Notes under the pieces: generated by a model
Database searches by the model: none
What the model saw: the letters and a program-made list of their open reading frames with translations, nothing else
What the model was told of the DNA's origin: nothing
Assembly: GCF_018977255.1 (NCBI RefSeq)
Contig: NW_024704742.1
Span: forward strand, 110,610,001 to 110,674,000
DNA: 64,000 nt
Direction of reading: 5' to 3'
Source of the DNA: Callorhinchus milii
Lineage: Eukaryota
Made by a program: the position numbers and the translations under genes
Part shown: positions 1,406 through 58,756 of the stretch, piece by piece
How positions within the stretch are numbered: position 1 is the stretch's first letter
Layout of the letters: each line of letters opens with the position of its first letter

Positions 1406-4400
1406 GCATTATATTATTGTATATACGTTAACAGTCAAAAGGGATGAAGGCAGGGTGCAGACCTAAACAAAATGCAATATAATTTACATTTAAATAGCAG
1501 CTTTCATATCAGGACGATGTCTCATAATGTTGGATGGGCATCTGAGTTGGATTGAGGATTGGGAAAATGACCGAAAGTGCGGTCAAACAGGTACATTTTC
1601 AGACATGCCTTGAAAGAGGGAGAAAGAGTCAGAGGGGCTTCTAGATGAAATTCCAAAGAGTAGAGGTAGAAAGGACTGAAAGCCTGCCCACTGATGGTGT
1701 GGTGGATAGGGCAACGGGATATGAAGCAGGCCAGTGTTTGCTGAGCAAAGGGAGCAACTGCGACAGCATGGTTGGAGGAGGTTGCAGATAAATAAATAAA
1801 ATAAATAAATGTGGTACTTTGGCAATCATTATATTTTCACCCTAAAAGGTTCCATTTATGAGGTAATGTAAAGTCCATGGTGGTCTCTAGTGAATCTCTG
1901 ATCTCATGAGTTGGTACCTAAGGCTGCATTGCAGATGTTTGAGAATATTTATATGGAAATCTTGAAAAAGTTCTCAAACATATTTCTGTGGGGCTTCTAA
2001 CAGTAATCTCATCAGGGTGTATACCAAAAGATAGTGGGACCACACACAACAAGACTGAAAAAAATGAAACAATATGAGAATTGTGTGCACAGAATAGGTC
2101 TGCAGGCTGCATCTGGATATCAATCTGGAATATTTAAAGAGGCACTACACAAAAAAAATTTGGCAAACTTTCTATTTGGGAATAGAAAAGAGCATCATGA
2201 CCCAATGATAGGTTCCAACACAATTTATGTTATTTAGTCATTTGATTGCACACAAAACTATTAAAATCAAGGTTTCTTAAACATTTTTGCGTGAAGAAGT
2301 TACACTTCAGATCAAGCAATACTCTTCTAATGCTTGAGTTTGATATAACGTCATTGAAATAACTCCACGCTCTCGCCCTCTTCTATCTCTGTGACCTGTG
2401 CTCCTATCATCTTGGCACCTCCTAACCAATCAGCCAACACCTGCCTGCTTCTTTTCTCCCACCCTCTCCATCCTGTTGAGCAAGCTTTTAACCATTCTGC
2501 TCCATTCTGTGCGCAATTGGCTGCCAGGTTTCGCCCACGAAACATGCAGTCAATTCACTTGACAGTATATGCTGTGAAGCGCTTTGAGATGTCTCAAAAA
2601 CGTGATAAGGCACTATATCAAATGTAAGGATTATTATTATATTATTATTATCCATCCAGAACCCTTCTCCTTGACTCCTCCCTCTTGCCCCCTCCCTCTC
2701 CGCCTTCAAAACCTATCTCAAAACATACTTCTTCAAAATATACCCATCTCCCCTTTAGCAAACCCCTCCTGCCCAGGACTTTGACATGTCTTCCCGATAA
2801 GATGCCAACCAATTTATTAAATATAAATTGTTGTAGTTCCCTTATTAAGTTGAAATGTCTCAAACTGCTTCACAAAATTAGTTACTCAAAGTATAATGCC
2901 TGTTATATGGCCTAACAGAAAAGTAAATATGCACTGCAATTTTCTGAATGTCCAAATAATTTCATANTTTTTGTGAATTTGGATGAGGAAGATTTGCTCT
3001 TTTTGAAATAGTGGAATGAAAACTTTAAAAACCACCTTAATCACCAACTCTTTTGAATTTGAAACAACAAAGAACTACCAGGTATCCAGATAATTTGACA
3101 TCTCACCCAGTCAGCACTTCCAACAAGTCAACATTCTCTTAGTTACTGTACTCTCACTCTATGTCAGCCCAGATTAGAAGGTCAAATCCTAACTGTGCCA
3201 AGGCTAACACATAATAAGTAGAAAGAAAAAATACTTAACTTTGTGTTTACCTGTAAAATGCAAACTAAAATGGTAGCAAATCTCAGTGTTTATAAAGGTT
3301 TACAGTAAACAAATTTAGTTACAATCAGAAACTATATATTTTTACTGTTTTGAATTTAAATAAATATAGCACTATGCGATAATTTCACTCTGCAATGCTT
3401 TATAAAATGTTATTCAATATTTAATTGTGCATCAATTTGTTTTTGAGTAGAAGATTTGTTTGCTAATGTCAGTTGGAGGAAATTCAAATCGATAAAGTAC
3501 CTGCAGTTCATTGAAGGCTAGCATTACAGGGCAGATGAATCAAGGGAATCATTTGGCAAAAACAAAGCGATCATTATTTAATCTCCCTAAAACATAAATT
3601 CACATAGGCATGGATTTGTCATCTAAACAAACCTTTGGGCAAACAGTGAATTTGATTTGGAATCTTTCAGTGTTCATTTTAATGAAAAGTCAGTAGTACA
3701 AACTAATATAGCTTGTACTTATTACTGCATAATATTCTTAACAGGGCTCTGTTAATAGCTATTATGCAGATATTATGTCTTGCCTTTCAGTGACATTAAT
3801 TCTGTTTTATTCTCTACCGTGCTTGATTATTATTATATTTTCTCCAATATATTTAATAAACACAATTACTTAATTTGAAATAGGAACATACTGGACTTTA
3901 AAGGAATAGATTTTTAAGAAGGAAAATAAGTCTTGCAAACTGTTTAATGTCAGCATAGTTTTTGTAAACATTACTGTACCCATATCAAGGGAACCATCTA
4001 ATCAACTCTTAACATTTTAATTCCTATTTCCAGGGCAGAGTGCTCTTTTGAACTACTGATGTTATGTTGAAATTATGGAAAACAGGATTGACATTTTGAA
4101 ATGTACAAATATTATACAAGTGAAAGAACCAAATTCACTGGAACTCGAGGCCAGAAACTGTTGTTGAAGCAGAAAGCATCAATGATTTCAGAAAAAACTT
4201 AATGCATACACGAGGGAGTAGGCAATAGAAAGATATGAAGGGGGACTACGTAGAGGGCATTAGGATGCATGGAGACTTGTGTGAAGTAAAAACCCTAGTA
4301 TCTAATAGTTGGGTTGAATTGCCCATTTCTATACTTTATATTTTATGTAATTTTATAAACCGATGAAGATTTAAATAACAAATACCCAGTTTAGAGATCC

Positions 4401-6062
4401 AGTTACTGATTGTGACGGCCTGAGAGGACATACTCTCACAAAGCACTTTATAAGACAAAGGTTAATTATTTTTATAAACAACGTTCAATGGAATCAAACT
4501 AATTTTAGATATTACATAAGAACATAAGAAATGCTAGATGAAAAATACCAAGGTCCATCTAGTTCGCCTTCCACTTTCCTGGTGGTTGCATGCACATGTG
4601 CACCAAACTACCTATGTACTATATCCCATATTAGTGCTTTCATTAATGAATAACAATCCTTGAATTTGATAAAACACCTTTTACATCAGGAGAACTTCTC
4701 AAAGTGCTTCACAGAAGTTTTTCTGTGAAGTGTACTGACTGCATCTTGTCAGTAATTTTTCTCATTTTCTTTATACACTTTTGCTTTTTGCACAAGATAA
4801 AATGCATTTAACTTCCAAACTCATGCAAATTGATAGACTGTAACATCATGTGTTTTAGGTAGTAGCAGAATTGGATAAAAACACGTTCAATGGTAAAAGT
4901 TCACATTCAATGTATAAATATAAAACATGAATTACAATCATCAAAAGAGAATATCTAAAAATGTATTCTCTATTAAGACTATTAAGGAAATTTAAATGTA
5001 AAGTATTGAGTGCTTTTTAAAATTCAGACTTTGTTTGATACGTTTAATTCCAGTTCACTTTTAAATGCCTCAAAGCTACACTTTGAGTATTTATGAACAT
5101 AGCGTTCTAATTCACATAAGTAAAAGGGCAGATTTATTGCCAAGAGCCAGTCATCAGACAAATAATGCCAAGATTCCCTGATAAAATGTTTAATTCAAGT
5201 GCCTTAAAAACAAATCTGACATCTAAAAGTTAGGGATGAAACCATCTTGTCCCAAACTTTTACTTGTGGTCAGTTCCTTCGGATTTTAAACTTGAGTCAA
5301 TACAGTAGATACAGAATGGCTGTCAGTGAGCTGAAATATGGCAAACTAATCAGGGTGTTTACGTGACATTGCACACCACAGGGGCCACTCAGATGGCTTG
5401 TGTTTGTCATGTGAATCCTGTGAGTACAAAGCCATCTGTAATTCCCTGACAACATCCACTACAATTTAATATTTAAAGGATATACATTTGTGACATGTAC
5501 TGTGCCTTTGATGGCACATGATTTGTTTGATGTCAAGGGTAACCTCATAACTTTGAGAGCCATGATAACATAGAGCTGAATAAAATATAACCAATGTAGG
5601 TTCTCATATGAAACTATGGTATTTTCAACATTTAAATACTTAATAACTCAATATCCTTTCTGAAGCAATGAGTGATTTGATCTAACAAGATATCATTGCT
5701 CATTTACTTCATGGCTGCTTGTGGGATATTGCTAATCACAACTTTGCCTATAAAACGCAGTCACTACATTTCACAATGAGTCCGGCAAAGAACCACCATC
5801 AATGGCTATGCCTTCAGCAACCACCCCCTAATCTCTAGAACTCCCTCCCTCAACCACTCCTCCTCCACCCCTTCTTGCCATCTCTCTTTATATCCCACCC
5901 TCTACCTCTTTGAACATACCTACAGTCACCTTCCCCCTCCTTCATTGCTCAATATCCAACCCCATCTCTGTGAAGTGCTCCGAGACATTACCTATATAAA
6001 GGATACCCTATAAGTGCAAGTTCTTGTTGTTGAATGTGGCTTGAAAGTCTGCCATGATTGCT

Positions 6063-7385
6063 GGTTCTTGTGCCTTAACTATAAAATGGTACTCTCTCAA
6101 AGGTACTCCTCTATGTGCCTATCTTAAGTTTAAGATACATTACAAACCACATTCAACTCAAATTTCCTTCCATGTAATGTTTGGAAACATCAATTAGAAA
6201 ACATAAACCAATATAGTGAATTTTTTTTGGTCAACTGAGTGTCTGTTGAAAACCCATCACAATGCTTGAGTTATTATGTTATTTGTAGTATTAAAAACAA
6301 ATTATTAATTATAATAATTATAATAAACAACATATTTCACCTTTTATATTGTTCAAAATAAATCTACTATCTGTAACATCAAAGCAAACGCTCTATTGAC
6401 AAAATGTCTTATGAAAGTATGACTTACTGTAACACTCATGAAAGCTTACATCAACTCAATCATGCAAGCTGAGCCATTTTATGACCCATTTACTCCTAAA
6501 TTGCAGTCCCTAAATATCCACTGGTTGTTAAGTTAGGTAGGCTGTTTCCATTGGTTAGGGAGTCTGTAACCAGGGTACACATATATAAGATAGTGATTAT
6601 GAATTTAACAGAGAATTTAGGAGGAACTGCTTCAGACAGAGTGTAGTGAGATTGTGAAACTCGCTGCCTGAAGCAGTGGTTGAATTAAATAGTGTAGATG
6701 CATTCAAGTGGAAGCTTCACAAGAGGGAGAAGGGAATAGAAGGAAATGAGAGGCAACAACAACAACAAGATTACATTTGTATAACGCCTTTCATGCCGGG
6801 GGGACCAAGGCGCTGGAAAGCGTACAGCATTTCAGACCCGAGCGGGGGTCGGGGCGGGGGGGGGGAGCGAGGGGAAGGGGGGTGGCCGATGGCATGGTTG
6901 AAGAGGAAGGTCTTGAGGCGGGACTTGAAGGAGGCTAAGGAGGGGGTGAGGTGGAGTGACTGGGGGATGGAATTTCAGAGGTTGGGGGCAGAATGGCTGA
7001 AGGCTCTCCCGCCAATGCTGGGGCGGGCGGATCAGGGGACATGGAGCAGGCCAGAGCCGACTGAGCGGAGGGAACTGGCGGGTTGGTAGGGGGTTAGGAG
7101 GTCGCAGAGGTAGGGTGGGGCGAGGACATGGAGGGCTTTGTATGTGAGGACCAGGATCTTGAACTGGAGAATCTGAAGAATAGGGAGCCAATGGAGTCGG
7201 GCGAGAATGGGGGAGATGGGATCACAGAGTTTGGTGCGGGAGAGGACACGAGCTGCAGAGTTCTGGATTATCTGCAGCCTGTGGAGGGAGGAGTTGGGAA
7301 GGCCGACAAGCAAGGCGTTTGCATAGTCGAGCCTGGAGGTGATGAAAGCATGAACAAGAGTTTCAGCGGCCTGAGGGGTGAGGTA
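6063..7385 (+). repeat. Donor copy of a ~1.32-kb near-identical duplication (second copy at 36994-38314)
   Basis: Direct comparison shows only about half a dozen differences by eye, including across ~470 bp that is not recognisably LINE-derived. Confidence 0.95.
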
Positions 7386-8632
7386 ATGGCGGAGTCGGGC
7401 GATGTTATGGAGGTGAGGGAAGGCAGAGCGGGTCATGGCTTGAATGTGGGGGAGAAAAGACAGTTGAGGGTCAAACAAGACACCTAGGTTCCTGACTGGC
7501 TTGGTGAGTTATAGTGTGCAACCATGGAGGTTGATGCTGCCAGGGCCTGAGGTGCTGAGGCACTGGCGCGAGCCAATCAGGAGGTCTCAGTCTTGTTCAC
7601 ATTCAACTGTAGGAAATTTGCCCTCATCCAGGACTTGATGTCCGACAGGCAATCTGTCAGGACAGCAGTGGTCCTGGAGGTGAGGGTGGAGGCAGAAACA
7701 TAGTTGGGTGTCATCCGCATACATGTGGAAATTGATCCCATGTCTGCGGATGATGTCACCAAGGGGGAGCATGTAGATATTAAAGAGGAGAGGGCCAAGG
7801 ACAGAGCCCTTGGGGAAGCCAGACGTGACAGTGCAGGGGTTGGAGGAGAAACCGTTAGAGGCAACAAAGTGGAGATGGTGAGAGAGATAGGAATTGAACC
7901 AGGCAAGGGCAGATCCGTGAAGATTGAGTAAAGAGGAGAGGCAGTGTATGAGGATGGAGTGGTCGACAGTGTCGAAGGCAGCAGAGAGGTCGAGGAGGAC
8001 AAGGAGGCAGAGGGAGCCCTGATCCCAGATGTTCAGAATGTCATCAGTGACTTTGACCAGGGCTGTTTCCGTGCTATGGGCAGCACGGAAGCCAGATTGG
8101 AGGGGTTCAAAGAGGAATGACGAGAAAGAAAGGAGTGGAGCTGGAACACGACGACTCGTTTCAGAACCTTGGAGAGCAACAGGAGATTAGCGATGGGGCG
8201 GTAGCTGGAGAGAAGGGATGGATCCAGGAAAGGTTTTTTCAGGATGGGGGTGATGACGGTTATTTTTAGGCGGTTGGGAACTGAACCGGTGGACAAGGAG
8301 AGATTGATGACATCGGACAGGATAGGGGCCAGAAGGTGGAGCTGGGAGATGAGGAGAGAGGTGGGGATGGGATCGAGGGAGCAGGTGGTAGGTTTGAGTT
8401 TGCGGACAGTCGTGGTGAGGGAGGAGGGTGAGATAGGGTCGAAGGAGTAAGGGGGGGAATGGGTGTGGGGTGGGTCATGAGGGAAAGGTGATGTGGGGGT
8501 GTCTGTGGATGGGGCTGAGGTGGCTGAACGTATCCCCTCGATTGAATGAGTGGAGACTCCTGTGGAGTATAAACACCGGTACCAACTGATTAGGCCCAGT
8601 GATCTGTTTCTGACCTGTGTATTCTTTGTAAA
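6530..8632 (+). mobile_element. Old CR1 3'-end fragment (6530-6753 and ~8500-8632) interrupted by the L2 insertion
   Basis: CR1 C-terminal motif (FRQSVVRL*NSLPEAVVELNSVDAFK..L) before the L2; CR1-type 3' UTR resumes after it. Confidence 0.65.
6754..8478 (-). mobile_element. L2-clade LINE, 5'-truncated, degenerate RT region plus 3' UTR and (TTG)n tail
   Basis: Frameshifted ORF2 motifs YRPIANLLLLSKVL, LLDLSAAFDTVDH, QGSVLGP, YADDTQL and LVHAFITSRLDY...LHWLP; 3' stem-loop and TTG tail at ~6754-6820. Confidence 0.95.
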
Positions 8633-10054: not shown

Positions 10055-10556
10055 TTGCCTGACAAGTGTGGAAACTCATCACCCTACTTAAGAGTCTCCA
10101 AACCAAACTAAGAGTTTCAAGTATGTATTACACCTACACATGAAATTTCCCTGTGTTTAGAATGGAATGCAGAATCTCTCCCTGGAAGCACGCATCCTGC
10201 TTACCTAATTCTGGAGAGTATTAAGTGGAGGTTGGGAAGAACAAAGGCTTGGGGACCTCAGAGTCTGTGTTGGCTACTGCTGGAGTTTAATCAGCTAAAA
10301 CCACATAGTTTGTCATTGAACACTCTGGTATGCTTCCTGATGGTTGTCCAGAATAATTAAACCAGCAACTTTAGAAATATTTGCATTATAGAGTAAATAA
10401 CTATAATTGTTACTAATATCTTTAAATAGATTTTATTAATCTGAACTACTCTACCCGTTAAGGCTTTGGCTGGCAGAGTTAAAGAAGCTGAGTGGGAAGA
10501 ATCTTTGCCCTAATTAAGCACTCTGCCCCTCCAAGTCCTGCTGATGAGCCAGGCTT
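10055..10556 (+). repeat. Unclassified ancient ~450-500-bp interspersed repeat (copies ~180-756+, 16160-16560-, 53745-53818+, 61436-61530-)
   Basis: Shared blocks CTTACCTAATTCTGGAGAGTATTA, GCTTGGGGACC, AATCAGCTA and CCTGCTGATGAGCC. Confidence 0.75.
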
Positions 10557-12001
10557 TAAAATCAAATTTGAAAAGAACTCACTGAAGAGTACTTTATGCA
10601 CAGCTCCACAGTTAATAATTTTACTCATGTAATTGACATAATTGGTTCAGATTTTTAGAATCCATTTAAAGATATTAGTAACAATTATAGTCATGTACTC
10701 TATAATACAAATATTAATAACTTTGCTGGTTTAATTATTGTGGTGCAAGATATCAACAAATATAGAAGCCATTCGAGCTTAGTCATCACAGTTTTTGCTG
10801 ATTAAATAATGGGCTTCCAACAGAGATCTATTTTAAAACACTGCATACTAACAGGTAAATCTATTCCTTTTTTCAGACAGCACATTTACATCACATTGTC
10901 TCTTTTGAGTTTTGGATTATCAAAGAATTGATCATTTCACTGTACTTAGAGACAAAAGCACTGATTAAAACATTTAATGAAAACATTACACAGGCAAGAC
11001 ACTTAAATACTTACATACATATACACATGCACTCATATCCATACATAGAGGTAAATATTACTCTGTGTCACCGTGAATATGATCCATTGATAGCATTTAC
11101 TCAACACAAAGGATTTGTATTTGCATTAGAGAAAACAAACAATTAACTATAACAACACGTTCGATATCCCTTTTAGTTGTAATACTAGGCAAAAAGTCAG
11201 TTCACAAGGTGTTAATAGTTCTAAGTCTTGTCTCTATCAAAATAGGATTCACATTTCTCAACTATTTTTTCAGATCAATATCTGTAAATAATAAATGAAT
11301 TCCCGCAGGGTTATTCTGAACCCCAACCAACACACAATAACTCCTTCAATGGACATTCATTCAACAAGGCAAGGGAACAATACACTAAACAGCATTTGTA
11401 ACAAACGGTAAACCAATAAGAATCTAATAGTGTATTGAGGAACATGATGGAAACAAAAAATTGCTTTGCAGCCGTAGGTTTTGTACATGTTAAGCCCAGG
11501 TATCACTGCTCTGGGACTGTTCATAATAGGATCATTGAAGGAACTAGTTGTCATGCCTGCTGTGGCCTATGATACTGTATAGTCTGAGAAAAATAAGTAC
11601 ACTAGTTTCTTGGAAATACATAAAGGAGCATTTTAGCCTCTTAGTATCTATTTCAAGTTTAGTTCCATTCCACGGTACAAGGTATTTTATTAAACTGAGG
11701 CTGTCATAACTCATTTGTTTTTCTCATACAACATAACTGCTGAAAACAGAATGACAATCTTTCTAACAACACTGACCCTAATGCAATACAAAATATTCCT
11801 TTAGAAAATCCAGCCACATAGATTATAGCAAATTCTGTTTTTTGTAAAAGTTGGAAAGTTAACAAGTCAGATTTAATTTTAAAAAAATGTCTGTAATACA
11901 CATACATCATTTGTGATACTGAAAGTGTAATTACTCAAATGAACAAGACAACAACTTAGCTGCCAAAGGCTTCAATGAGTATGAATAGTTTCAGCACTTA
12001 C

Positions 12002-13143: not shown

Positions 13144-13550
13144 ATAATAATAATAATAATCCTTGCATTTGATATAGCACCTGATCACATCTTGGAGACG
13201 TATCAAAATGCTTCACAGAATATACTGCAAAGTGAATTGACCGTGTATTTTGTGGCTGAAATGCGGCAGCTCATTGTGCACAGCAGTATCCCACAAACAG
13301 TTGTGGACTGAGTAACTAAATTATTATTATTTATTTTTGAACAGGTGATTACCACCAGTAAAGCAATATGCTAACCGACTAACTAAGAATGGCATCCTTC
13401 TGGGCGATACATTTCTGTGATTTTATTTTAATAGTTAAGCAATTTTTTTCAATAAACTGAAAATGAGTTTGATGAAGATGAATTATTGCCACCAACTTAG
13501 CTTGTGTATATTAATACCTACTGCTGACCAATCCACCAGTATCATCTGGT

Positions 13551-13868
13551 GGAGACCTGTAGCTCAGTGGTTAGAGCACTCGCCTCGCAAGCGAGACACC
13601 TGGGTTCAATTCCAGGCAGGGCAAAACCTTGGGCAAGTTTCCTTACTCCACACACAGCCTAATAATAATCCCTCCAAAAACAAAACAAAAAAAAATTGGT
13701 CACTTTCAATCCACGATTGTTTGTGGGATACTGCTATGCGCAATTGGCTGCCATGTTTCGCCAACAAATATACAGTCAATTCACTTTACAGTCTATTCTG
13801 TGAAGCGCTTTGAGACGTCCTCCCGACGTGAAAAGCGCTATATCAAATGCAAGGATTATTATTATTAT
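13551..13868 (+). mobile_element. Young tRNA-derived SINE (short form) with L2-type 3' tail and (ATT)n
   Basis: A box TAGCTCAGTGG, B box GTTCAATTCC, CORE-like CCTTGGGCAAGTTTCC, tail AAGCGCTTTGAGACGTC...ATCAAATGCAAGG(ATT)n. Confidence 0.93.
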
Positions 13869-26835: not shown

Positions 26836-29800
26836 ATAAGACCATAGGAACCGGGGTAGGCCATTCAGCCCTTTGAGCGTTTTCCAACATTTAATTAGAT
26901 CATGGCTGATCTGTATCTCAACTAATCCTTTCAATTCCAATTTCAACAACAACAACAACAAAATTGCATTTATAGAGCGTCTTTCATGTCGGGAGGATGT
27001 TCCAAGGTGCTGACTTTCCTGCCTGCTCCCCGTATCCCTTTTTACTCCTCTTATTACTTTCTTTATATCCCTTGTTGTCTTTGTAGTTCTCCCAGTCCTC
27101 TGCATTCCATTTTTTTCTTGCATTTGCGTAAGCCTTTTCTTTTAGCTTGATACAGTCTCTAACCTCTTTTGTCCACCATGGTTGCTTAACTACATGATTG
27201 GGCCTTTTGCATTTTAGGTGTATGTACTTGTTCTGTATTGTATCAAATACTTTGAATACTTCCCAGTGCTACTGTCTTTACCTTAGAAGAAACTGAAAAC
27301 CTACCAAGAATAGAGGAGAACCAAAGAAGACAATGTTAGCGAGCAACTTGGGGAAATTAATATTCGTAAAGAAATGGTTTTAGGTAAATTGTCAGGTCTT
27401 AAAACTGATAAATCCCCTGGACCTGATGGCCTACATCCTAGGGTTTTAAAAGAGGTTGCTACTGAGATAGTGGATGGCTTGTCTTTCATCTTCCAAAATT
27501 CTGTGGATTCTGGAACGGATCCCATTGATTGGAAGATTGCAAACATAACACTAATATATAAGAAAGGTGGGAGAGAAAAGATGGGGAACTATAGACCAGT
27601 TAGTCTGACATCAGTGGTAGGGAAAGTTCTTGAGTCCTTAATTAAGAATGTCGTTATGGGATTCCTGGAAGACCATAACAAGATTAGGCAGAGTCAACAT
27701 GGCTTTACAAAAGGGAAGTCATGCTTAACTAATCTTTTAGAGTTTTTTGAAGATGTATCTAGCCGGTTAGATAGGGGGAAACCAGTAGATGTAGTGTATT
27801 TAGATTTTAAGAAGGCATTTGACAAAGTGCCACACAAAAGGCTATTGCACAAGGTTAAGGCCTACGGGATTAATGGGAACATATTAGCATGGATTGAAGA
27901 GTGGCTAACAGGTACAAAACAGAGAGTAGGGATAAACAGGTCATTCTCGAATTGGCAGGTTGTGACTAGTGGAGTGCCACAAGGATCAGTGCTTGATGAG
28001 GACATTGAATGTAACGTATCTAAATTCGCGGATGACACTAAACTAGGTGGAAGAGTAAGCTCTGAGGATGATGCAAAAAGATTGCAATGGGATACAGATA
28101 GGCTAGGGGAGTGGCCGAGTAGGTGGCAGATGGAATTTAATGTGGGGAAGTGTGAAGTTATTCACCTAGGTAAAAAAAATAGAAAAACAGATTATTTTCT
28201 AGAGGGGGAGAAATTAGATAGTGTTAGTGTTCAGAGGGATTTGGGTGTCCTTGTACACTAGTCTCAAAAAGTTAGTTTACAGGGTGAGCAAGCAATTAAG
28301 AAGGCAAACGGCATGTTAGCGTTCATTGGAAAAGGTTTAGAGAACAAGAGTAGGGAAGTCTTGCTGCAACTGTATAGGGCCTTGGTGAGACCGCACCTAG
28401 AGTATCGTGTGCAGTTTTGGTCTCCTTATTTAAAAAAGGACATACTTGCCTGAGAGGGGGTTGCAGCGTAGATTCACTAGGTTAGTTCCTGGGATGAGGG
28501 GACTGACCTATGAGGATAGGCTGAATAAACTAGGGCTGTATTCTCTAGAGTACAGAAGAATTAGGGGAGATCTTATTGAAACATATACGATTCTTAAAGG
28601 GGCTGGATAAAGTAGACACTGAGGCACTGTTTCCCCTGGTAGGAGAATCTATAACCAGCCTTAAAATTAAGGGTCAGCCTTTTAGAACAGAGTTGAGGAA
28701 ACATTTCTTCACTCAGAGGGTAGTGAATTTATGGAATTCACTACCCCAGAAGGCTGTAGATGCTCAGTCCTTGAACATTTTCAAGGCTGAGACTGATAGA
28801 TTTTTTTTAAAATAGAGGGATTAGGGGATATGGGGATAGGGCAGGTAATTAGAGTTAGGTCAGAAGAATGGCAGGGCAGGCCTGAGGGGCCGAATGGCCT
28901 TCTCCTGCTCCTAATTCTTATGTTCTTATGTTCATCTGCAGGTTACCCACTAACAGTTCAGCCCAGTTTACTGTGATAAATATATTTCTCATCCCATCAA
29001 AGTTTGCCTTACTTAAATTTATCACCTTGGTTTGGATCTCTCCCTTTGCCCTCTCAAATCTAATGCAAATTCAATCATATTATGATCACAATGTGCAAGA
29101 TATTCCCTTACTGTCAGATTGTTAACTAGTTCTGGCTACCCATCACCAAATCCAGTATGGCGTGTTCCCTTATTGGTTCTAAAACATATTGTTCCAAAAA
29201 ACTGTCCTGAATACATTCTAGAAATGTGTTGCCTTACCTACCCTGAGGTGCCCTGCTTTTTCCAGTCTATGTGAAAATTAAAATCTCCCATTATAACCAC
29301 ATCGGTTTTGCTACATGCTTCTCTGATCTCTGTATTTATACATTTGTCCACTACATTGCAACTCTGTGGAGGTCTATAGACTACTCCTAACAGATTCTTA
29401 CCTCCTTTACTGTTACTTAATTCTACCCATGGTGTTTCCACTACCCGCCCTTACTGAAATCTTTCCTTTCCACTGCTGAAATAGTGTCTTTTATCAATAT
29501 TGCTACTCCTCCTCCTTTCCCAATGTCCCTGTCTTTTCTAAACATCTTATAGCCTGGAATATTTAGCTCCTCCTTCTGCCCAGCTTGTAACCAGGTCTCT
29601 GTAATGGCTGCTACATCATAACCTTTAAATTGAATTTGTGCTTCCAACTCACTTGTTTTATCTCTTATGCTACATGCATTTGTATACTTAACTCTTATTT
29701 GGATAACTGTCCCCAACATACCTATATGCCCTGACGATGTTCTTCTCACACTTTTTGACTTGTTACAACTTTTGTGATAATTTCCTATTAGCTTTATCTG

Positions 29801-30780
29801 TCCTGTATTATTTATATTTTCTTGATCACTCTTGTATTCTGACCATTGCTCTCATCTTATCCTTGCCTTATGTTTTGGTTATTGTTTCCACCCGATCCTC
29901 CCCACACCCCCTTACTGGTTTAAAGCTTCTTCATCCCATCCCAGCAGTACAGCTCATTCCTGTTCCAGTACTGGTGCCAGTATACCATGAAATGGAAACC
30001 CTCTTCTCACACCACACTTTCAGCCACACATTCATTTCACTGATCTGTTAATCTCTATGCCAATTTGCACATGGCTCGGGTAACAATCCAGAGGTTACCA
30101 CCTTCGAGGTCCTGCTTTTTAAATTTAGCCCCTAGCTCTTAGCAGGACCTCCTTCTTGCTCTTTCCTATGTCATTGGTTCCAGCATGGATAATGACAACT
30201 GTTTCTTTCCCCTCTCTTTCCAAGTTCCTTTCCAGCTGCTTTGAAATATCCCTTACCCTGGCACCGGGAAGGCAACACACTCTCCTGGACTCTCGATCTC
30301 GACTGCAGAGGATGTCCTCGATCCCCTTAATTATTTCATCCCCTATAACTACAGCATTTCTATTCTGCTCCTCCCCCACTTGCACTGCATTCTGCTATGT
30401 GGTGCTTTGGTTTGCATTCAGGCCTCGTTCCCCACAGACTTCTCCCTTTTCCAATGTAGCAAGTACACTGTACCTTTTGGGCAGGACCAGTGTCTCCTTC
30501 TCTGCCTCTACTAAGTAAATGCTACTCTGCTGGCTTTCAGTCTCATACTCCTCTTCCTGTACCTCTCTATGTGGCGTGGCTACGTTCTAAAGTAAACAGT
30601 CCAAATATTCCTCCCCCTCCCTTATGCATCAGAGTGTCTCTAATGTGCACGCCAGGTCAAAAAACTGAGCCAGAGTGATTCAAGACACGTGCACTTCTCA
30701 CAGATATGACCATAAAGGAAAGCCTTACTCACAAATTCACACATACTGCAGCTTTGACACACCATCTGTGTTGCCATTAT
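26836..30780 (-). mobile_element. CR1 LINE retaining ORF1 (zinc finger plus SGNH esterase), the APE endonuclease, part of the linker and the 3' end, but lacking RT
   Basis: ORF1 starts MATQMVCQSCSMC...HICEKC (ATG 30777). Esterase blocks VVIGDEI, CLPGARVRD, IHAGTND; endonuclease TNACS, ITETWL, GVVYRPP, MGDFN; linker QPWWTKEV at ~27170; CR1 3' end at 26836-26943. Confidence 0.9.
27269..28930 (+). mobile_element. CR1 LINE, 5'-truncated, RT domain to 3' tail, nested in an antisense CR1
   Basis: 295-aa ORF with [53 protein letters not shown]-terminal FFTQRVVNLWNSLP; (TTCTTATG)n tail. Confidence 0.96.
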
Positions 30781-32351: not shown

Positions 32352-32669
32352 GGAGTCCTGTAGCTCGGTGGTTAGAGCACTCGCTTTGCAAGTGAGAGAC
32401 CTGAGTTCAATTCCAGGCAGGGCGAAACCTTGGGCAAGTTTCCTTACTCCACACACCTAATAATAATTCCTCCAAAAACAATAATTAAATTGGTCATTTT
32501 CAATCTACGATTGTTTGTGGGACATTGCTGTGCGCAATTGGCTGCCGCGTTCGCCCACAAATATACAGTCAATTCACTTTAAAGTATGTTCTGTGAAGCG
32601 CTTTGGGACGTCCTCCCGACGTGAAAAGCGCTATATCAAATGCAAGGATTATTATTATTATTATTATTA
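32352..32669 (+). mobile_element. Young tRNA(Ala)-derived SINE, full length (short form)
   Basis: Same structure as 13551-13868; anticodon-like loop TT-TGC-AA. Confidence 0.93.
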
Positions 32670-34650: not shown

Positions 34651-34693
34651 GCTTAAACAATGGTCTACATGGCAGATATGGTCATTTTGGAGT

Positions 34694-35090
34694 GGAGTCC
34701 TGTAGCTCAGTGGTTAGAGCATTAGCTTTGCAAGAGAGAGACCTGGGTTCGATTCCCTGCAGGGTGTAACCTTGGGCAAGTTTCCTTGCTCCACACGCCT
34801 GATAATAATCCCTCAAGAAAAAAAAACAATAATAAATTGGTCGCTTCAATCCACGACTGTTTGTGTAACACTGCTGTGTGCAATTGGCTGCTACATTTCG
34901 TCCACAACTATAGTCAATTCACTTTACAGTCTATTCTGTGAAGCGCTTTGAGACGTCTAGAAGACGTAAAAAGCTCTATATCAAATGCAAGGATTATTAT
35001 TATTCTGTGAAGCACTTTGAGACGTCTAGAAGATGTGAAAAGCGCTATATCAAATTCAAGGATTATTATTATTAATATTATTATTATTAT
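34694..35090 (+). mobile_element. Young SINE, full length, with a tandemly duplicated 3' tail
   Basis: The tail TATTCTGTGAAGC...CAAGGATTATT occurs twice (~34932-35002 and ~35001-35070). Confidence 0.92.
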
Positions 35091-35559
35091 TTTGTACTCC
35101 TCTGGAAGGTGGGAGACAATGCACAATGTGACTGCAGATACCAAAGTACCTGGGTTGATCTTTTGTCAGCGACGTCTCAGATTTACACTTAACCACTTAC
35201 AAAGCTACCTCCTAACTCACTAATCTGGACTTGGCTATTTGAACGCTGCTAATCACTTCTCTTACCATGCGAAAGTCATAGTACTGACACAGACTAGTTG
35301 GTGTGAATGGCCTGTTTCTGTGCCATATCATTCTATATAGTCTATGAAACGTTTAGGAATCTTTTATTTTGATACAAAAGGTGAGAGGCTGGGATTAAAA
35401 TGTTTGCTGTCAGCTAATAAAATAGCTACAACAACAACAGGCTCAACAGCTTATCAGGCTCAATGAGCTTAATATTTCTCATGTTCCTATATTCCTAACC
35501 TCCCTCTACTATGCCCAACAATGTACCTTTCTTAGTGGTTAAGGATAATTTAAAGGCAG

Positions 35560-35720
35560 TTTTGTGTTGTGAGGCTAATCTCATTCGAGCTGAAATGAAA
35601 GTTCCCAAACTCATTTCACATGAGACCCTCTCAGACAACTGTCAGAAGATCACATCAATCTAGACTGGATTTTAACTTAGAGGTGAAACAAGTACTTAAT
35701 GTACTAGGCCAGCATCAAAC
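35560..35720 (-). mobile_element. LF-SINE-like ancient SINE fragment
   Basis: Minus strand has TTTCACCTCTA...AATCCAG...TCTGACAGTTGT...ATGTGAAATGAGTT, collinear with the LF-SINE 5' half as recalled. Confidence 0.5.
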
Positions 35721-36332
35721 CAATTTATCTGCAAAAAAAGTAAAATAATGATCAATAAAATGTCAGATGAGAGTAAGATTATCTTCTTTGCACACACAGC
35801 AGTAAATAACAGACAAAACTTTCACACAGCCACCCTCAGTGAGCAACATAGACTATTGAATGGAAAGTTAAGTGATTTTACCTCTTTTTCATTTAATTCA
35901 ACTTAGAAAAGTACAGGGAACCTTAATATAGCACAGTTGGCTGGGTCCAATGTCAGTGATGGTGTTAAAAGGAACGCGAATACTGCAGTTCTTATGTTCC
36001 TACATTCCTAACCTCCCTTTTCAATGCCCAACAATGTACCACACAAAGTGATTAACAATGTATTAAGGACAGTTTTGTGCTGTGAGTCTAATCTCATTGG
36101 ATGAAAGTCCCAAACTCATTTCACATAGGACCTTCAAGGCCAACAAACAAAGGATCACATCAAAAAAAAGGAAACCAAATTGACATAAGAATATGCTTCA
36201 TGAATATATTTTGCATGTGTATCGAGCACAGTGATGTTTCCTGTATATAGCACACCACACGCAGAAAGTGATGTCAATAGTGATCTGATGACCTGAACAT
36301 TATTCACATTTTGGTGCTGGAAGCCAGCTAGT

Positions 36333-38767
36333 CAACAACAACAACAACAACAAGATTACATTTGTATAGTGCCTTTCATGTCGGGAGGACGTCCCAAGGC
36401 GCTGAAAAGAGTCCAGCATTTCAGACCCGAGTTGGGGTTGGGTGGGGGGGAAGGGAGGGGAGGGGAAGAGGGGTGGCCGATGGCATGGTTTTGAGGCGGG
36501 ACTTGAAGGAGGCTAAGGAGGGGGTGAGGCGGAGAGACTGGGTGATGGAATTCCAGAGGTTGGGGGCAGAGTGGCTGAAGGCTCTCCCGCCAATGGTGGG
36601 GCGGGTGGGTCAAGGGACGTGGAGCAGGCCGGAGCCGGCTGAGCGGAGGGAGTGGGCAGGTTGATAGGGGTTTAGGAGGTCACAGAGATAGGGTGGGGTG
36701 AAGCCATGGAGGGCTTTGTAGGTGACGACCAGGATCTTGAACTGGATCCTCTGAAGGACAGGGAGCCAATGGAGTCGGGTGAGATTGGGTCACTGAGTTT
36801 GGTGTGGGAGAGGACACGGGCTGCAGAGTTCTGGATTATCTGCAGCCTGTGGAGGGAGGAGTTGGGAAGGCCGACAAGCAGGGCATTTGCATAGTCGAGT
36901 CTGGAGGTGATGAAGACACGAACAGGAGTTTCAGCGGCCTGAGGGGTGAGGTAGTGGCAGAGTCGGGTGATGTTACGGAGGTGAGGGAAGGCAGGTTCTT
37001 GTGCCTTAACTATAAAATGGTACTCTCTCAAAGGTACTCCTCTATGTGCCTATCTTAAGTTTAAGATACATTACAAACCACATTCAACTCAAATTTCCTT
37101 CCATGTAATGTTTGGAAACATCAATTAGAAAACATAAACCAATATAGTGAATATTTTTTGGTCAACTGAGTGTCTGTTGAAAACCCATCACAATGCTTGA
37201 GTTATTATGTTATTTGTAGTATTAAAAACAAATTATTAATTATAATAATTATAATAAACAACATATTTCACCTTTTATATTGTTCAAAAAAAATCTACTA
37301 TCTGTAACATCAAAGCAAACGCTCTATTGACAAAATGTCTTATGAAAGTATGACTTACTGTAACACTCATGAAAGCTTACATCAACTCAATCATGCAAGC
37401 TGAGCCATTTTATGACCCATTTACTCCTAAATTGCAGTCCCTAAATATCCACTGGTTGTTAAGTTAGGTAGGCTGTTTCCATTGGTTAGGGAGTCTGTAA
37501 CCAGGGTACACATATATAAGATAGTGATTATGAATTTAACGGAGAATTTAGGAGGAACTGCTTCAGACAGAGTGTAGTGAGATTGTGAAACTCGCTGCCT
37601 GAAGCAGTGGTTGAATTAAATAGTGTAGATGCATTCAAGTGGAAGCTTCACAAGAGGGAGAAGGGAATAGAAGGAAATGAGAGGCAACAACAACAACAAG
37701 ATTACATTTGTATAACGCCTTTCATGCCGGGGGGACCAAGGCGCTGGAAAGCGTACAGCATTTCAGACCCGAGCGGGGGTCGGGGCGGGGGGAGAGCGAG
37801 GGGAAGGGGGGTGGCCGATGGCATGGTTGAAGAGGAAGGTCTTGAGGCGGGACTTGAAGGAGGCTAAGGAGGGGGTGAGGTGGAGTGACTGGGGGATGGA
37901 ATTTCAGAGGTTGGGGGCAGAATGGCTGAAGGCTCTCCCGCCAATGCTGGGGCGGGCGGATCAGGGGACATGGAGCAGGCCAGAGCCGACTGAGTGGAGG
38001 GAACTGGCGGGTTGGTAGGGGGTTAGGAGGTCGCAGAGGTAGGGTGGGGCGAGGACATGGAGGGCTTTGTATGTGAGGACCAGGATCTTGAACTGGAGAA
38101 TCTGAAGAATAGGGAGCCAATGGAGTCGGGCGAGAATGGGGGAGATGGGATCACAGAGTTTGGTGCGGGAGAGGACACGAGCTGCAGAGTTCTGGATTAT
38201 CTGCAGCCTGTGGAGGGAGGAGTTGGGAAGGCCGACAAGCAGGGCGTTTGCATAGTCGAGCCTGGAGGTGATGAAAGCATGAACAAGAGTTTCAGCGGCC
38301 TGAGGGGTGAGGTAGTGGCAGAGTCGGGTGATGTTACGAGGTGAGGGAAGGCAGAGCGGGTCATGGCTTGAATGTGGGGGAGAAAAGACAGTTGAGGGTC
38401 AAACAAGACACCGAGGTTCCTGACTGGCGGTGAGTTACAGTGTGCAACCATGGAGGTTGATGCTGTCAGAGCCTGAGGTGCTGAGGTGCTGGTGTGAGCC
38501 AATCAGGAGGTCTCAGTCTTGTTCACATTCAACTGTAGGGAATTTGCCCTCATCCAGGACTTGATGTCTGACAGGCAGTCCATCAGGACAGCAGTGGTCC
38601 TGGAGTTGAGGATAGAGGCAGAAAGATAGAATTGGGTGTCATCGCATACATATGGAAGTTGACCCCATGTCTGCGGATGATGTCACCAAGGGAGAGTATG
38701 GGGCCAAGGACAGAGCCCTGGGGGACGCCAGATGTGACAGTGCGGGGGCTGAAGGAGAAACCGTTAG
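36333..38767 (-). mobile_element. L2 LINE fragment interrupted by a 1.32-kb copied segment (36994-38314)
   Basis: L2 tail at 36333, L2 ORF2 to 36994, then a copy of 6063-7385, then L2 ORF2 continues to 38767 (through the YADD/QGSVLGP region). Confidence 0.92.
36994..38314 (+). repeat. Inserted copy of 6063-7385
   Basis: Starts GGTTCTTGTGCCTTAACTATAAAATGG as at 6063 and matches through ...GAGGGGTGAGGTA. Confidence 0.95.
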
Positions 38768-38949
38768 TCAGTGTAGAGAAGTCAGATGTAACAAGCTTCC
38801 CATTAGTGTTAGTTCACAGTAATCCCATGGTATAATCGAGTCAGCGTAATAGTGAAAGATGCCATTACAAATTCCCCATGTGCATAATGGAGGAAAATTA
38901 ATACATAAGAACATACATACAGGAATATTCAACCTGTCATGTTATTTAG

Positions 38950-47760: not shown

Positions 47761-50700
47761 TATTACATAGAGCATACAGACATTATTTTCTCTTTATTCT
47801 AGAAAGTTATATTTTGTTCCACATCCAATCATAATGTCTATTATTTTATGAATGCCTCTCTGATTTGTCTTGTCTGATACAATATAACAGTGTCAGATTA
47901 CACCACAATCTATTTTGGTATAACTGTTATATCAAAATGCATGTCTACTGTCCTTAAGAAAGTACTGGATGTGCAGTAAAATGGCATTTCTTGTATAAAA
48001 GTACACGCTGAATTAAAGCACTCAGCAGAATTAGGCATAGCATTGCCAGACCATAAATGTCTCACCTAGATTTCTTTGTAAAACAACTACATCTTGTCAG
48101 CAACAGAGGAATATAACGGAGCTGATCATCCGAGAGAATTCAATTAGATAATGGCAGTCAATATTAACCGAGGATGACAACTCATAATGTGATGAAAATA
48201 ACAGTGCAAACCATCGATATTTTCTGATGCCTTCTATGATACCCTAATGTATTAGCAGTTTTGTAACAACAGACCCTCATCTTCTTAAAACATGTCAAGG
48301 CTTAGCCCTGTTAATTGAATGTGCAGGAAATTAAAATTAAACAGAGTCTGGAGCAACCAATAAGTTATACAAATTAAAAGCAAAGTAACATTTCCTTAAA
48401 TGAATGATTATTCAGTCATCTTCTTTCTCAATTAGAGTAAACTGACTTCCATCATTTCATTTGAAATGGCATTCTTTGCTTGAGAGTCCATGGATATGGG
48501 TTGGGTGTCAGCTCAGGAGGCAGGTGAAAATTGACAGCACAGATTGTTTGAGAGGGCTTTTCCATCAGACAAGCTTTTCTCATTTCTATAATCTTACATT
48601 TCTAGATAGTACACAAAGTCAGCAGTTTGACAACCTGCAGTCCAATGACAATGGAGTTTACCCCCATTCCAAGTCAATGAAGATAATAACGCATTGATTT
48701 CTCCCTGTTGATTGTAAAGATTCTGAGTAAAACGAGACTTGGCAGTGTCCTTGTAGGCATTGATCTAAGGCACAAAACTCTCTTCAATTTGATTCGCGTT
48801 AGCACTAAATTAGAAATCTGAAGCTCAACATCCTCATGGTCATTGCCTTCAGACCATCATCTTAAAATTAACATTGTACAAAATTCTGGAAAATTCTTAA
48901 ATGTAGTCTTAAGTACAGTTAAGGCTGTACAGTTTTTATAGAAATGGAAATCAAACAAATGAATTGACCACATTTAGCCTCCCATTGCAGCCCTAGCTAA
49001 GACCAGCAAACAGCAAGATTTGAACCAGCAAGCTCACCATCCATAAACTGCAGCTTTATCCACTACACCATCAGATTTCTATGCCTCAAGATTCATATTC
49101 AAAGATTCAAGAATGACTTTAAAGGCATTCCAACAGATTAATAATAATAAATAATGATAATATTTGAATTTGATATAGCATCTTATGTCAAAAAGGCTCA
49201 AAGAACTTCAATGTTTCTGAGTAGAATAGTTACTCTGTATCTGGAGGTGAACATGACAGCCAATTAATTCACAATAATATGCAGTTCCATATAGAAGTGA
49301 ATGGACAAGAGCCATGGTATCTTCAATGTCATGGAACCTCTGTTTAGCATTCCATCTGAACAACAACAACCACCACAAAATTACATGTGTAAAGAGCCTT
49401 TCACATCGCGAGGACATCTCCAGGCACTGAACAGTCAGGGATCAGGACCTGAGCATGGGTGGGGGCAGGGTTGGGACCAAGAGGGTAGGTTTGGGTTGAG
49501 GGAGGTCCGAGAGGTAGGAGGGCGGCTGAAGGCACAGCCAAAAAAGGAAGAACTTGAGTCATGCCTTGAAGGATGCAAGGGAGGGATCAAAGCAAAGGGA
49601 TTGTGAGATGGAGTTCCAAACGTTGGAGGCAGAGAGGCTGAAAGGCCAGCCGCCAATGGTAGGGTGGGTCACGTGGGAGACATGGAGCAGGCTAGAGTCT
49701 GCTGAATGGAGGCAGCGGACAGGTTGATAGGGGGTCAGCAGTCAGAAAGGTAGGCCTTGAAAGTGAGGATGGATCTGAAGGTCAGCACCTCCAACACTGC
49801 AGCCCTCCCCCACTGTATTGTCCGCTTAAACGGTAAATTCAAAGACCAATTGGGTGCTTGAACCCATAACCTCTGAGTCAAAGATGAGAGTGCACCACCT
49901 CTGGCAGGCTGACACCATGGCTGGAATAGGGAATCTCACACTGATTTCATCATCTTTGTTTAATTTTTCTTATTGGAAAATAAAACACGCTGAAACAGTT
50001 TATTATTATCATTAGCACTTACTTAGCAATGCACCAAATGAAATGTGAAAGTTGAGAACGGATTCAGGATTATAGAGATTTACATGCATTATTTCCCACC
50101 CTCTCAGCCCAATAGGATTACATGGATTTTAGCAACCTGCCTCCTTACACAAAATTGCCACTTTTAAAATCATTAGCTTCTCTTAGACTTGTTTTTAAAT
50201 GTTAAACTAATCTCAGGAAAAATGCATTGCATTTGATTCTCTAGGTGGCAATGCGAGTCAGTGTGACATTGAGTTGGTGAGTTGGTAAATTCCACTGGTT
50301 ATTGAGTTGGTAAGTAGTGGGCACACATTTAAGGTAATTACCAAAAGAGAAAAGGGAGAAGCTGGGAACATTTTTTTTCACATTGAGGGTTGATGGATAC
50401 GGAATATCCTATCTAGAAAGGTGTTGGATGCAGAATCTATATTAGCTTTTAGGAAGGAATAAATAATATTACTCCTTACATTCGATATAGTGCTTTATCA
50501 GAAAACCTCAGAAAATGCATCCAGTCCCAGCTTCTTGCTTCGGTGCAGAATCAGGCCCTGTGGCAACTCTCAGGACAAATCAGAGGAGCCATATTGACAA
50601 CTTGTCATCGTGATCCCAATTCTGCACTCTATTCTAAAATTCTCCAGCGCCTGAGTTTCAAATGTCAAAACACCTCAGGGAGACTTATTTGTTTGGTGCA

Positions 50701-51279: not shown

Positions 51280-51770
51280 ATTATTGAGAATTCCTGATAG
51301 ATGTTCTTAAAATTATGAGGGATCTTCATATATATAGGAAAATTATTTCCACTGGTGGTTAAGTTGGCAAGTAGTTGGCATAGATTTAAGGTAATTACCA
51401 AAACAGCAAAGGGAGAAGCTAGAAGATGTTTCCATATTGAGAGTTAGGATGTGGAAAACCCTATCTAGAAAGGTGTTGGATGCAGAATCTATATTAGCTT
51501 TTAAAAAGGAATTAGATAATAATTTTCTGTGCATTTGATATCGCTCTTTATCACGTTGTCAGAAAAACATCTAAAAGTTCTACACAGGATACACTGTAAC
51601 CTAAGTAACTGTGTATTTTGGGCAAATACATATCTGAAAAGGAAAAAAGATAAAAGGGTATGGGGAAAAGACAGGAAATAAGTCTAACTGGATAGTTCTT
51701 TCAGAGAGACAGCACAGGTATGTTTGGCTGAATGATATCCTCCTCTCCTGTACATTTCTGTGGTCCTATG
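51280..51770 (+). mobile_element. Old CR1 3' fragment with an inserted SINE tail
   Basis: CR1 C-terminal and 3' UTR motifs; inverted SINE tail at ~51517-51625. Confidence 0.7.
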
Positions 51771-53830: not shown

Positions 53831-54145
53831 GAGTCCTGTAGCTCAGTGGTTAGAGCACTCGCTTTGTAAGTGAGAGACCTGAGTTCAATTCCAGGCAGGG
53901 CGAAACCTTGGGCAAGTTTCCTTACTCCACACGCCTAATAATAATCCCTCCAAAAACAAAAACAATAATAAATTGGTAATTTTCAATCCATAACTGTTTG
54001 TGAGACACTGCTGTGTGCAATTGGCTGCCACGTTCGCCCACAAATATACAGTCAATTCACTTTACAGTATATTCTAGAATATAGTATATTCTAGTCGAGA
54101 AGACGTGAAAAGTGCTATATCAAATGCAAGGATTATTATTATTAT
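53831..54145 (+). mobile_element. Young SINE, full length (short form)
   Basis: Near-identical to 32352-32669; part of the tail stem is replaced. Confidence 0.92.
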
Positions 54146-54289
54146 TTTTATTATTAAGAGTGCTTTGGAGTACTGCAGACCCGCCTGCCTCATAACACTT
54201 GAGACCATCACAAAGAATTGATTTGTTTCTGACATTCTAGTGCCAAGCACATTATCTCTATTTACCTCTCTGCTCCGCCTCCCCTCCAC

Positions 54290-57327: not shown

Positions 57328-57653
57328 TAATAATAATAATAATAATAATCCTTGCATTTGATATAGCGCTTTTCATGTCAGGAGGACATCCCAAAGCGCT
57401 TCACAGAACACACTGTAAAGTGAATTGACTGTATATTTGTGGGCGAACGCGGCAGCCAATTGCGCACAGCAATGTCCCACAAACAGTCGTGGACTGAAAA
57501 TGACCAATTTATTATTGTTTTGTTTTGGAGGGATTATTATTAGGCTCTGTGTGGAGTAAGGAAACTTGCCCAAGGTTTCGCCCTCTGCCTGGAATTGAAC
57601 TCAGGTCTCTCGCTTGCAAAGCGAGTGCTCTAACCACTGAGCTACAGGACTCC
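57328..57653 (-). mobile_element. Young SINE, full length (short form)
   Basis: Reverse complement of the family consensus; 13 bp of the head (AGCTACAGGACTC) is repeated at 57654-57666. Confidence 0.93.
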
Positions 57654-58756
57654 AGCTACAGGACTCACTTTAGTTATAAAGTGATAAACATTATGTAATA
57701 ATCAGTACTATCTTCAAACAATTGGATCACCATTTCTTTGGTGAAATGGAAGCAGGTTTTCTTATACAACAACAACGACAATTTGCATTTATATCGAGCC
57801 CTTCACACCGGACGGCGACTCAGAGCGCTTATAAGGGACTTTCTTTTCAAAACTTAATGCCGGCAACCCTTCTTACAGTCTCTTTCTAGCGATGCAATTA
57901 ATTTGTATCACCATGGCTACTATTAAAAATCTGAAGCTTTTTAAATACAGACGAGGCATCATTATTATGTCATGAAGCAACAATGAGAAGCACCTGCATG
58001 AGACACAGTTCTTTAGTATTTTTGGATGGGATCTTCATAGCTGCAGTAGTTTCTGGCTCCCTATTCATTAAAATGTATGTGCAGTGCCTATAGAGTTTTA
58101 ATTTCTAATATTATGGATCTCTAAATAATTTCAGTTTCTAGCAACGGGATATCTTATGGGCCAATTGTACAACAACAACAAAATTACATTTGTATAGCGC
58201 AGCAGATTTGGAATTGATTTTGTGCAAATATTATCTTAAATCATTGTAAAATCTGCAATATATCTGCACATTTAGGGGTCTCAAATGAATCAGTGTTTAC
58301 TGAAATAGTTCATAAATAACTGCAGGAGCTGGTTTGACACCATTCCAACCTCACACCAGCTACAACTATATTTATAAAAGGCAAAATACTGCAGAACTGC
58401 CCAAAGGTCATCGACCTGAAACGTTAACTCACTTTCCTCTCTCCATAGATGCTGGTTGACCTGCTGAGTGTTTCCAGCAACTTCTGTTTTTACAACTATA
58501 ATTGTAACCAATGTGAATGAAGCTTACAAACTTTTACTTTAAACTTTATATTTGCAAGACATTTGCCAGATCATCTTTACCTTGTTTAATGTCAGTGAAA
58601 ATATCAAGAAGGCAATATAGCTCGTCTGACATCAAAACTTTTACCACAAAACGTATTTGTTCTGCAAAGCTACTATTTGATCCATTACTATTTGTAACAT
58701 TTGGTTGTATTGAACAATCTGAACTCTCTATAAATATGGTAAAATTGGAGAGAAAC

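Follow-up and report, generated by a model that had tools for sequence, protein, structure and literature searches.

A probable repeat-guided repair insertion between neighbouring LINE copies of Callorhinchus milii

Features of the locus

The analysed window is a stretch of 64,000 bp of Callorhinchus milii DNA (contig NW_024704742.1, forward strand, positions 110,610,001-110,674,000), and its own positions are used throughout. It contains two minus-strand copies of a LINE family, which we take, on the basis of protein motifs, to belong to the L2 clade (Table 1). The first of these, referred to as the donor LINE, retains a reverse transcriptase domain (Pfam RVT_1 at 7587-8186, E 3.3e-21), and each of its reading frames contains 7-21 stop codons. 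The second, the recipient LINE, appears to be separated into a tail-side and a 5′-side part by a nearly identical copy of DNA of the donor locus.

Table 1. Positions of the donor, the recipient and the inserted copy in the window
Feature	Position	Strand	Remarks
Template (donor) segment	6063-7385	+	99.5% identical to 36994-38314
Donor non-L2 flank, 3′ of the LINE tail	6063-6753	.	~6063-6526 single-copy, ~6527-6743 older repeat
Donor LINE	6754-8543	-	1.8 kb; (CAA)n tail at 6754; broken reverse transcriptase frame
TAGTCA, left copy of a 6-bp repeat that may be the target-site duplication of the original recipient LINE	36329-36334	+
Recipient LINE, tail-side part	36333-36994	-	in register with donor 6754-7426
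Duplicated target, left copy	36954-36994	+	minimum 41 bp, rising to 69 bp if counted from 36926
Left junction	36994	.	1-bp microhomology; no filler, poly(A/T) or assembly gap
Inserted copy	36994-38314	+	691 bp of donor flank and donor-type LINE 3′ end
Right junction (switch block)	38287-38314	.	28 bp identical in donor and recipient
Duplicated target, right copy	38315-38354	+	one G shorter than the left copy
Recipient LINE, 5′-side part	38315-38767	-	truncated at 38767; 92.9% identical to the donor LINE
TAGTCA, right copy of the possible target-site duplication	38765-38770	+

Three-way alignment placed the tail-side part of the recipient in register with the donor LINE, the two sharing 584 of 643 aligned bases (90.8%). 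The best matches of the 5′-side part elsewhere in the assembly were 87-93% identical (40 scored of 6996 candidates), and a third-party donor of this part was rejected, since no close paralogue was present among the 40 candidates scored. The tail-side and 5′-side parts diverge from the family by 6.4% and 4.4%, respectively, and are alike at 40 of the 41 bases of their overlap. Because the two parts are in register, carry TAGTCA at their outer ends and include a 5′-side part with no close paralogue, they are likely, to judge from their sequences, to be halves of one interrupted LINE. The insert was therefore classed as interrupting a single transposon copy, each of the supporting lines being of moderate weight.

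The outer hexanucleotide repeat was rejected as proof of a single element: within the same search intervals, a 6-bp end match was found in 18 of 380 shuffled end pairs, i.e. at a chance level of about 5%, and the family seldom shows such repeats. The test covered the 20 of 28 family copies in which both ends were usable, the other 8 being skipped. Target-site duplications are rare in this LINE family (1 of 20 copies with a 6-bp end match, no more than among the shuffled pairs), in contrast to the 80% given for zebrafish ZfL2-2 in cells in PMC2666801. The age of the copies or the calling of their ends may account for this rarity.

The copied segment

Comparison of the window with itself revealed a single long pair of nearly identical sequences (6060-7858 and 36991-38767). 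The inserted copy (1321 bp) and its donor (1323 bp) have the same orientation and are separated by 30,931 bp. The near-identity of 36994-38314 and 6063-7385 had been proposed in a first-pass annotation of the window, and base-by-base pairwise alignment confirmed it, coordinates included: 1315 of 1321 aligned bases are identical, the differences being six substitutions (donor positions 6222, 6359, 6610, 6864, 7066 and 7313) and, in a run of G, a single indel of 2 bp. Past donor position 7385 the identity drops to 419 of 451 bases (92.9%). When near-identical pairs (at least 150 bp, at least 95%) were listed for the 464 kb around the window, this was the only same-orientation pair of at least 400 bp at 96% or more, and it therefore exceeds what is expected by chance.

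The insert was also said to include non-LINE DNA and to have moved unique sequence. The first statement holds for the 691 bp of donor flank, part of which (~6527-6743) is an older repeat; the second holds for approximately 460 bp of single-copy DNA, the rest of the insert not being single-copy. The interval 6060-6660 is matched over its full length at only two places in the assembly, both within the window (40 of 1151 candidates scored), and the remaining matches reach only positions 468-601 of this query. Repeat matches to 6583-6743 were found in the 464-kb region. No ORF of at least 110 aa lies wholly inside the non-LINE part of the insert; the copy has no evident function and its effect is likely nil.

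Other repeats in and around the window

The window contains an open reverse transcriptase frame of 315 aa (RVT_1; 27314-28261, plus strand) and, 1.2 kb beyond it, part of an endonuclease (Exo_endo_phos; 29441-29851) on the other, minus strand. They represent either two fragments of LINEs from a different family or one such fragment with an inversion inside it. Immediately to the left of the recipient LINE is an old direct repeat (35476-35658 and 35989-36163; 78% over 183 bp) that is not matched over its full length anywhere else in the assembly and may represent an older local duplication. Further pairs are (i) a 99-bp inverted repeat (10348-10446 and 10645-10743; 88%), with arms approximately 200 bp apart, (ii) a direct repeat of 212 bp (50290-50500 and 51347-51553; 82%), with copies about 1 kb apart, and (iii) in segment L078 of the 464-kb region, an inverted pair of 717 bp (1251-1967 and 3009-3723; 97.6%), whose arms are about 1 kb apart and which is partly composed of a dispersed repeat. 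A dispersed repeat of 320 bp, SINE-like by its size, occurs five times in the window (13549-13868, 32352-32669, 34692-35004, 53831-54153 and 57328-57654); these copies are 84-94% alike, and the identity with copies nearby reaches 97.6%.

The junctions and the duplicated target

At the left junction, the recipient LINE ends with ...GAAGGCAG and is followed directly by donor sequence. A single G is shared at 36994/6063, in agreement with the 1-bp microhomology of the first-pass annotation, and the final four bases agree at three positions. At the right junction, the same 28 bp are present in the donor (7358-7385), the copy (38287-38314) and the recipient (36926-36953). The copy carries a donor-private A at 7347/38276 (of other family copies, 1 of 28 and 0 of 29 have it, in two partly overlapping sets that were both chosen by similarity and are used in all comparisons below). 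It has neither the recipient-private letters at three sites (7348, 7351 and 7357) nor the donor letters from 7386 onward. Because donor-type letters extend through 7357 and donor letters are gone from 7386, the change from donor to recipient is placed inside the 28-bp block, where it had originally been located.

Recipient LINE sequence of approximately 40-70 bp had been reported on both sides of the insert, and the length found here is 41-69 bp. The right copy equals the left one minus a single G at ~38337, a position just beyond the stretch that the annotation had quoted. The annotation also described the sequence after the switch as matching the recipient. Its departure from the donor stands, but the letters concerned are shared with other members of the family: the set of four recipient-type letters (G, A, T and C) is complete in 8 of 28 and 5 of 29 further family copies, although none of the four additional copies in the 464-kb region has it. 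The recipient 41-mer recurs without a mismatch in 5 of 28 and 1 of 29. As they are common in the family, these four SNPs were rejected as sole proof of a return to the recipient.

The G of the copy at 38242, where the donor has A, was considered as a patch of recipient sequence, and this reading was also rejected. The A occurs in 0 of 28 and 0 of 29 family copies, and the adjacent recipient-private site, 4 bp away, is of the donor type; the G is more simply explained as a variant of the donor haplotype.

Presence in the animal and age of the insertion

Six of the 24 listed runs, among which no informative one came from the assembled animal, were compared (X15-X20; X1-X14, with shares of 0.08-0.16, and X21-X24 were left out), and four animals (X15-X18), all from one study, were informative. 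No read or contig spanning 36994 was found in the six runs. In each of the four informative animals, one contig (914-969 nt) includes 36994-37603 and extends a further 304-359 nt to the left, where its letters are unlike those of the recipient. These extensions probably represent the donor flank, since by their lengths they would end at 5704 and 5759, within a repeat that occupies ~5680-5780. In X16 and X18, no other contig covers 37007-37139. There is thus a hint that the left junction is absent from X15-X18. The cover of X19 and X20 is patchy or nil; the differences listed for X19 are all G>A, and one of its pieces (~37007-37032) is compatible with either the donor or the junction.

The contigs of all four informative animals carry the donor letter at 37541, and letters of the copy were found at 37153 in two of them and at 37290 in all four. 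Over 610 sites, X15, X16, X17 and X18 differ from the copy at 1, 3, 2 and 2 positions, and from the donor of the window, by a tally of the same table, at 2, 2, 1 and 3. The copy falls within the allelic variation of the donor locus, and the event is younger than this variation, since the copy is just another allele of that locus. The insertion is likely to be a young, rare or segregating variant. These contigs support the description of the event as recent, since the junction is missing from them and the copy lies between their donor alleles.

Two further observations on these runs were set aside. The contig depth ratios (0.81 for X15, 0.59 for X16, 1.46 for X17 and 1.44 for X18) are too noisy, and contig depth is not a valid measure of copy number; the values of X17 and X18 would be expected of a heterozygous carrier, and contigs drop rare variants. 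A joint of 36989 with 38351, present in three of the four runs, was rejected as an empty allele: it skips 1361 instead of 1360 bases, its short side comprises 26 letters and it lies wholly within the high-copy LINE. No empty allele is present in the assembly, and the contigs of other animals cannot resolve one inside the LINE.

It is unlikely that the duplication is an artefact of assembly, in which merged haplotypes or a chimeric read would have doubled a segment that is single-copy in the animal. The divergence of copy and donor (0.5%) is at the level of two alleles, as merged haplotypes would give, and the junction was unseen in the contigs of all four informative animals. Such an artefact would, however, require two false joins, one of them on a 1-bp overlap, placed in register within 69 bp. 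There is no assembly gap within 200 kb and no contig join at the junction, no similar pair occurs in the 464 kb, and a search of the rest of the assembly yielded no piece that could represent a second haplotype of either the left flank or the copied DNA. The 464-kb region contains 10 single Ns but no N run, and none of them is near the junctions. The duplication is real in the sequence and is probably real in the animal.

All 10 Ns of the 464-kb region (including those at 2967, 15161 and 23873 of the window) immediately precede a run of 5-7 A or T residues, which probably results from the way the sequence file was processed.

Origin of the insertion

We interpret the insertion as a recent germline repair scar, produced by homology-primed copying from the nearest paralogue and closed by end joining or by microhomology re-priming; we assign this reading a probability of roughly 0.7. 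The broken right-hand end of the recipient LINE, its 3′ strand pointing left, would have paired with a copy of the same family 31 kb away and would have been extended, on this DNA template, for 1.3 kb leftwards through the tail of the donor LINE and 691 bp of its flank. The extended strand would then have been released and joined to the left end via the 1-bp microhomology, so that homology would have acted first and microhomology last. The 41-69-bp target duplication may have arisen when a leftward fork collapsed and re-primed behind the break, or by the filling in of two staggered nicks; we lean slightly towards re-priming, the sequence itself being compatible with both.

The right junction is in register and lies in the 28-bp identity block beside the break, not in a 61-bp block farther away. 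Among the bases of identity blocks of at least 20 bp, 104 of 470 are within 68 bp of the break. The LINE family is represented in the 464 kb by eight alignments of at least 300 bp at 83% or more, and genome-wide by thousands of copies (6996 and 8909 first-look candidates). The donor is the copy found nearest to the recipient in the 464 kb but not the most similar one, the two being 87% identical (BLAST, gaps included) while the best other matches reach 91-92%. Since the donor is nearest and yet not most alike, it appears that proximity chose the template. Repeat-guided ectopic repair, the reading offered by the first-pass annotation, is thus supported by one homologous and one microhomologous junction, by the duplicated target and by the nearest donor, and it performs better than the rivals tested. 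No poly(A) tail or signal is present at the donor breakpoint, which also supports the annotation's view that the DNA moved without retrotransposition.

The annotation's single copying event is likewise supported, although it left unmentioned a two-step route to the same letters. A tandem duplication of 6063-36994 (30.9 kb) followed by an ectopic LINE-LINE deletion, between the second donor copy and the recipient, would give an identical final sequence. The left junction exactly fits a tandem duplication, the sequence from 36994 onward equals the deletion product of the donor and recipient LINEs, and the 41-69-bp duplication is explained without staggered ends. This route would nevertheless have to place its crossover beside the duplication junction by chance, at odds given by the above 104 of 470 identity-block bases even within the LINE, and we would expect perfect 31-kb repeats, rather than LINEs of 91-93% identity, to mediate the collapse. 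We regard it as improbable.

It is still less probable that the template was RNA, i.e. that a minus-strand read-through transcript was reverse-transcribed at a nick at 36994, by 3′ transduction or transcript-templated repair, and that its cDNA annealed by homology. The copied DNA does consist of a LINE 3′ end with its downstream flank, in the polarity expected of read-through; target duplications arise from staggered nicks; and zebrafish ZfL2-2 junctions usually show microhomologies, according to the junction data in PMC2666801. The same data, however, give target changes of at most 20 bp in 24 of 25 ZfL2-2 insertions, as against the 41-69 bp found here. The insert also lacks the marks of LINE 3′ transduction: no tail or poly(A) is found at its 3′ end, nor a poly(A) signal, the source element is a broken 1.8-kb fragment, and the target duplication is not short. 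Furthermore, the LINE tail would sit 690 nt inside the RNA, and an RNA acting in trans gives no reason for the choice of the nearest donor. The same very slight probability applies to a variant in which nascent read-through RNA of the dead LINE stayed close to its locus of origin and was copied by reverse transcription from a nick in the adjacent paralogue, with homology serving to seal the product. If this were true, dead LINEs would move downstream unique DNA into nearby relatives in the vertebrate germline in a homology-directed and RNA-templated manner.

The reverse order of steps, with the left end primed at 6063, copied rightwards and captured by homology in the recipient, yields the same product and agrees with the left junction at three of four bases, but it is highly improbable, as a 1-4-bp match would not explain a landing 690 bp from a paralogue in the one orientation that permits in-register capture.

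Comparison with known systems

Mechanisms of the class preferred here, i.e. homology-primed copying closed at the other end by joining, are already known as DDSA, one-sided invasion or repair-mediated duplication. One-sided invasion, or coupled homologous and non-homologous repair, together with LINE-to-LINE gene conversion at a break, was reportedly described by Belmaaza and Chartrand in 1994, by Richardson and Jasin in 2000 and by Tremblay, Jasin and Chartrand in 2000. The likeness lies in the reported use of homology at one end and joining at the other, with endogenous LINE paralogues as templates, whereas the systems were reportedly experimental and employed somatic cells.

The model of duplication-dependent strand annealing (DDSA; Fiston-Lavier et al. 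2007, as outlined in PMC3276153) concerns larger segmental duplications of Drosophila, in which a break within a repeat is repaired from an ectopic copy of that repeat. The insertion resembles these in the location of the break in a repeat, the use of another repeat copy as template and the presence of repeat homology at one end only. It differs in the absence of re-invasion marks (short tandem repeats or gaps, which that outline treats as optional), as the copy contains only the 2-bp G-run indel, and in the presence of a target duplication, which has no counterpart in the outline of DDSA in PMC3276153.

Vertebrate inserts that interrupt transposons were described as repair-mediated duplications by Pace, Sen, Batzer and Feschotte (2009; PMC2671141). 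According to the figures given there for the confident set, the donor lies within 5 kb, the insert is at most 619 bp, the microhomology is 2-9 nt and the TSD is 4-21 nt; 5 of 39 proximal cases have both microhomology and TSD, with filler present or absent. The insertion shares with these cases an interrupted transposon, one donor on the same chromosome, the lack of poly(A) and the combination of microhomology with target duplication. Its own values (30,931 bp, 1321 bp, 1 nt and 41-69 nt) are outside the ranges quoted for the confident set, and one of its junctions, in contrast to those portrayed in PMC2671141, uses long repeat homology. By distance and size it would fall within the "distant" group of the same paper (58 intrachromosomal cases of up to 3,424 bp), which its authors left unclassified.

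Template switching by FoSTeS / MMBIR, in the accounts found in PMC2583991 and PMC5120786, also gives templated insertions that are hundreds to thousands of bases long and show microhomology of 1-3 bp. The templated insert with short microhomology is common to these and to the insertion, and backward re-priming yields a duplication. The events of those accounts occur at the junctions of large human rearrangements, whereas the insertion stands alone, is 1.3 kb long and involves one switch guided by a repeat. Its slightly unusual features are the long repeat-guided junction and the duplicated target.

Significance

This is a single event, which moved about 460 bp of single-copy DNA, and it tests no open question. 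If the insertion is real, it offers a natural case of repeat-guided ectopic repair in the vertebrate germline that can be read with unusual ease, since the donor, the acceptor, the switch window and the re-copied target are all legible. It may still segregate, in which case an empty allele should be recoverable. It would further indicate that LINE copies diverged by approximately 9% can prime copying, that proximity outweighs similarity in the choice of template, and that LINE copies can move flanking DNA without retrotransposition.
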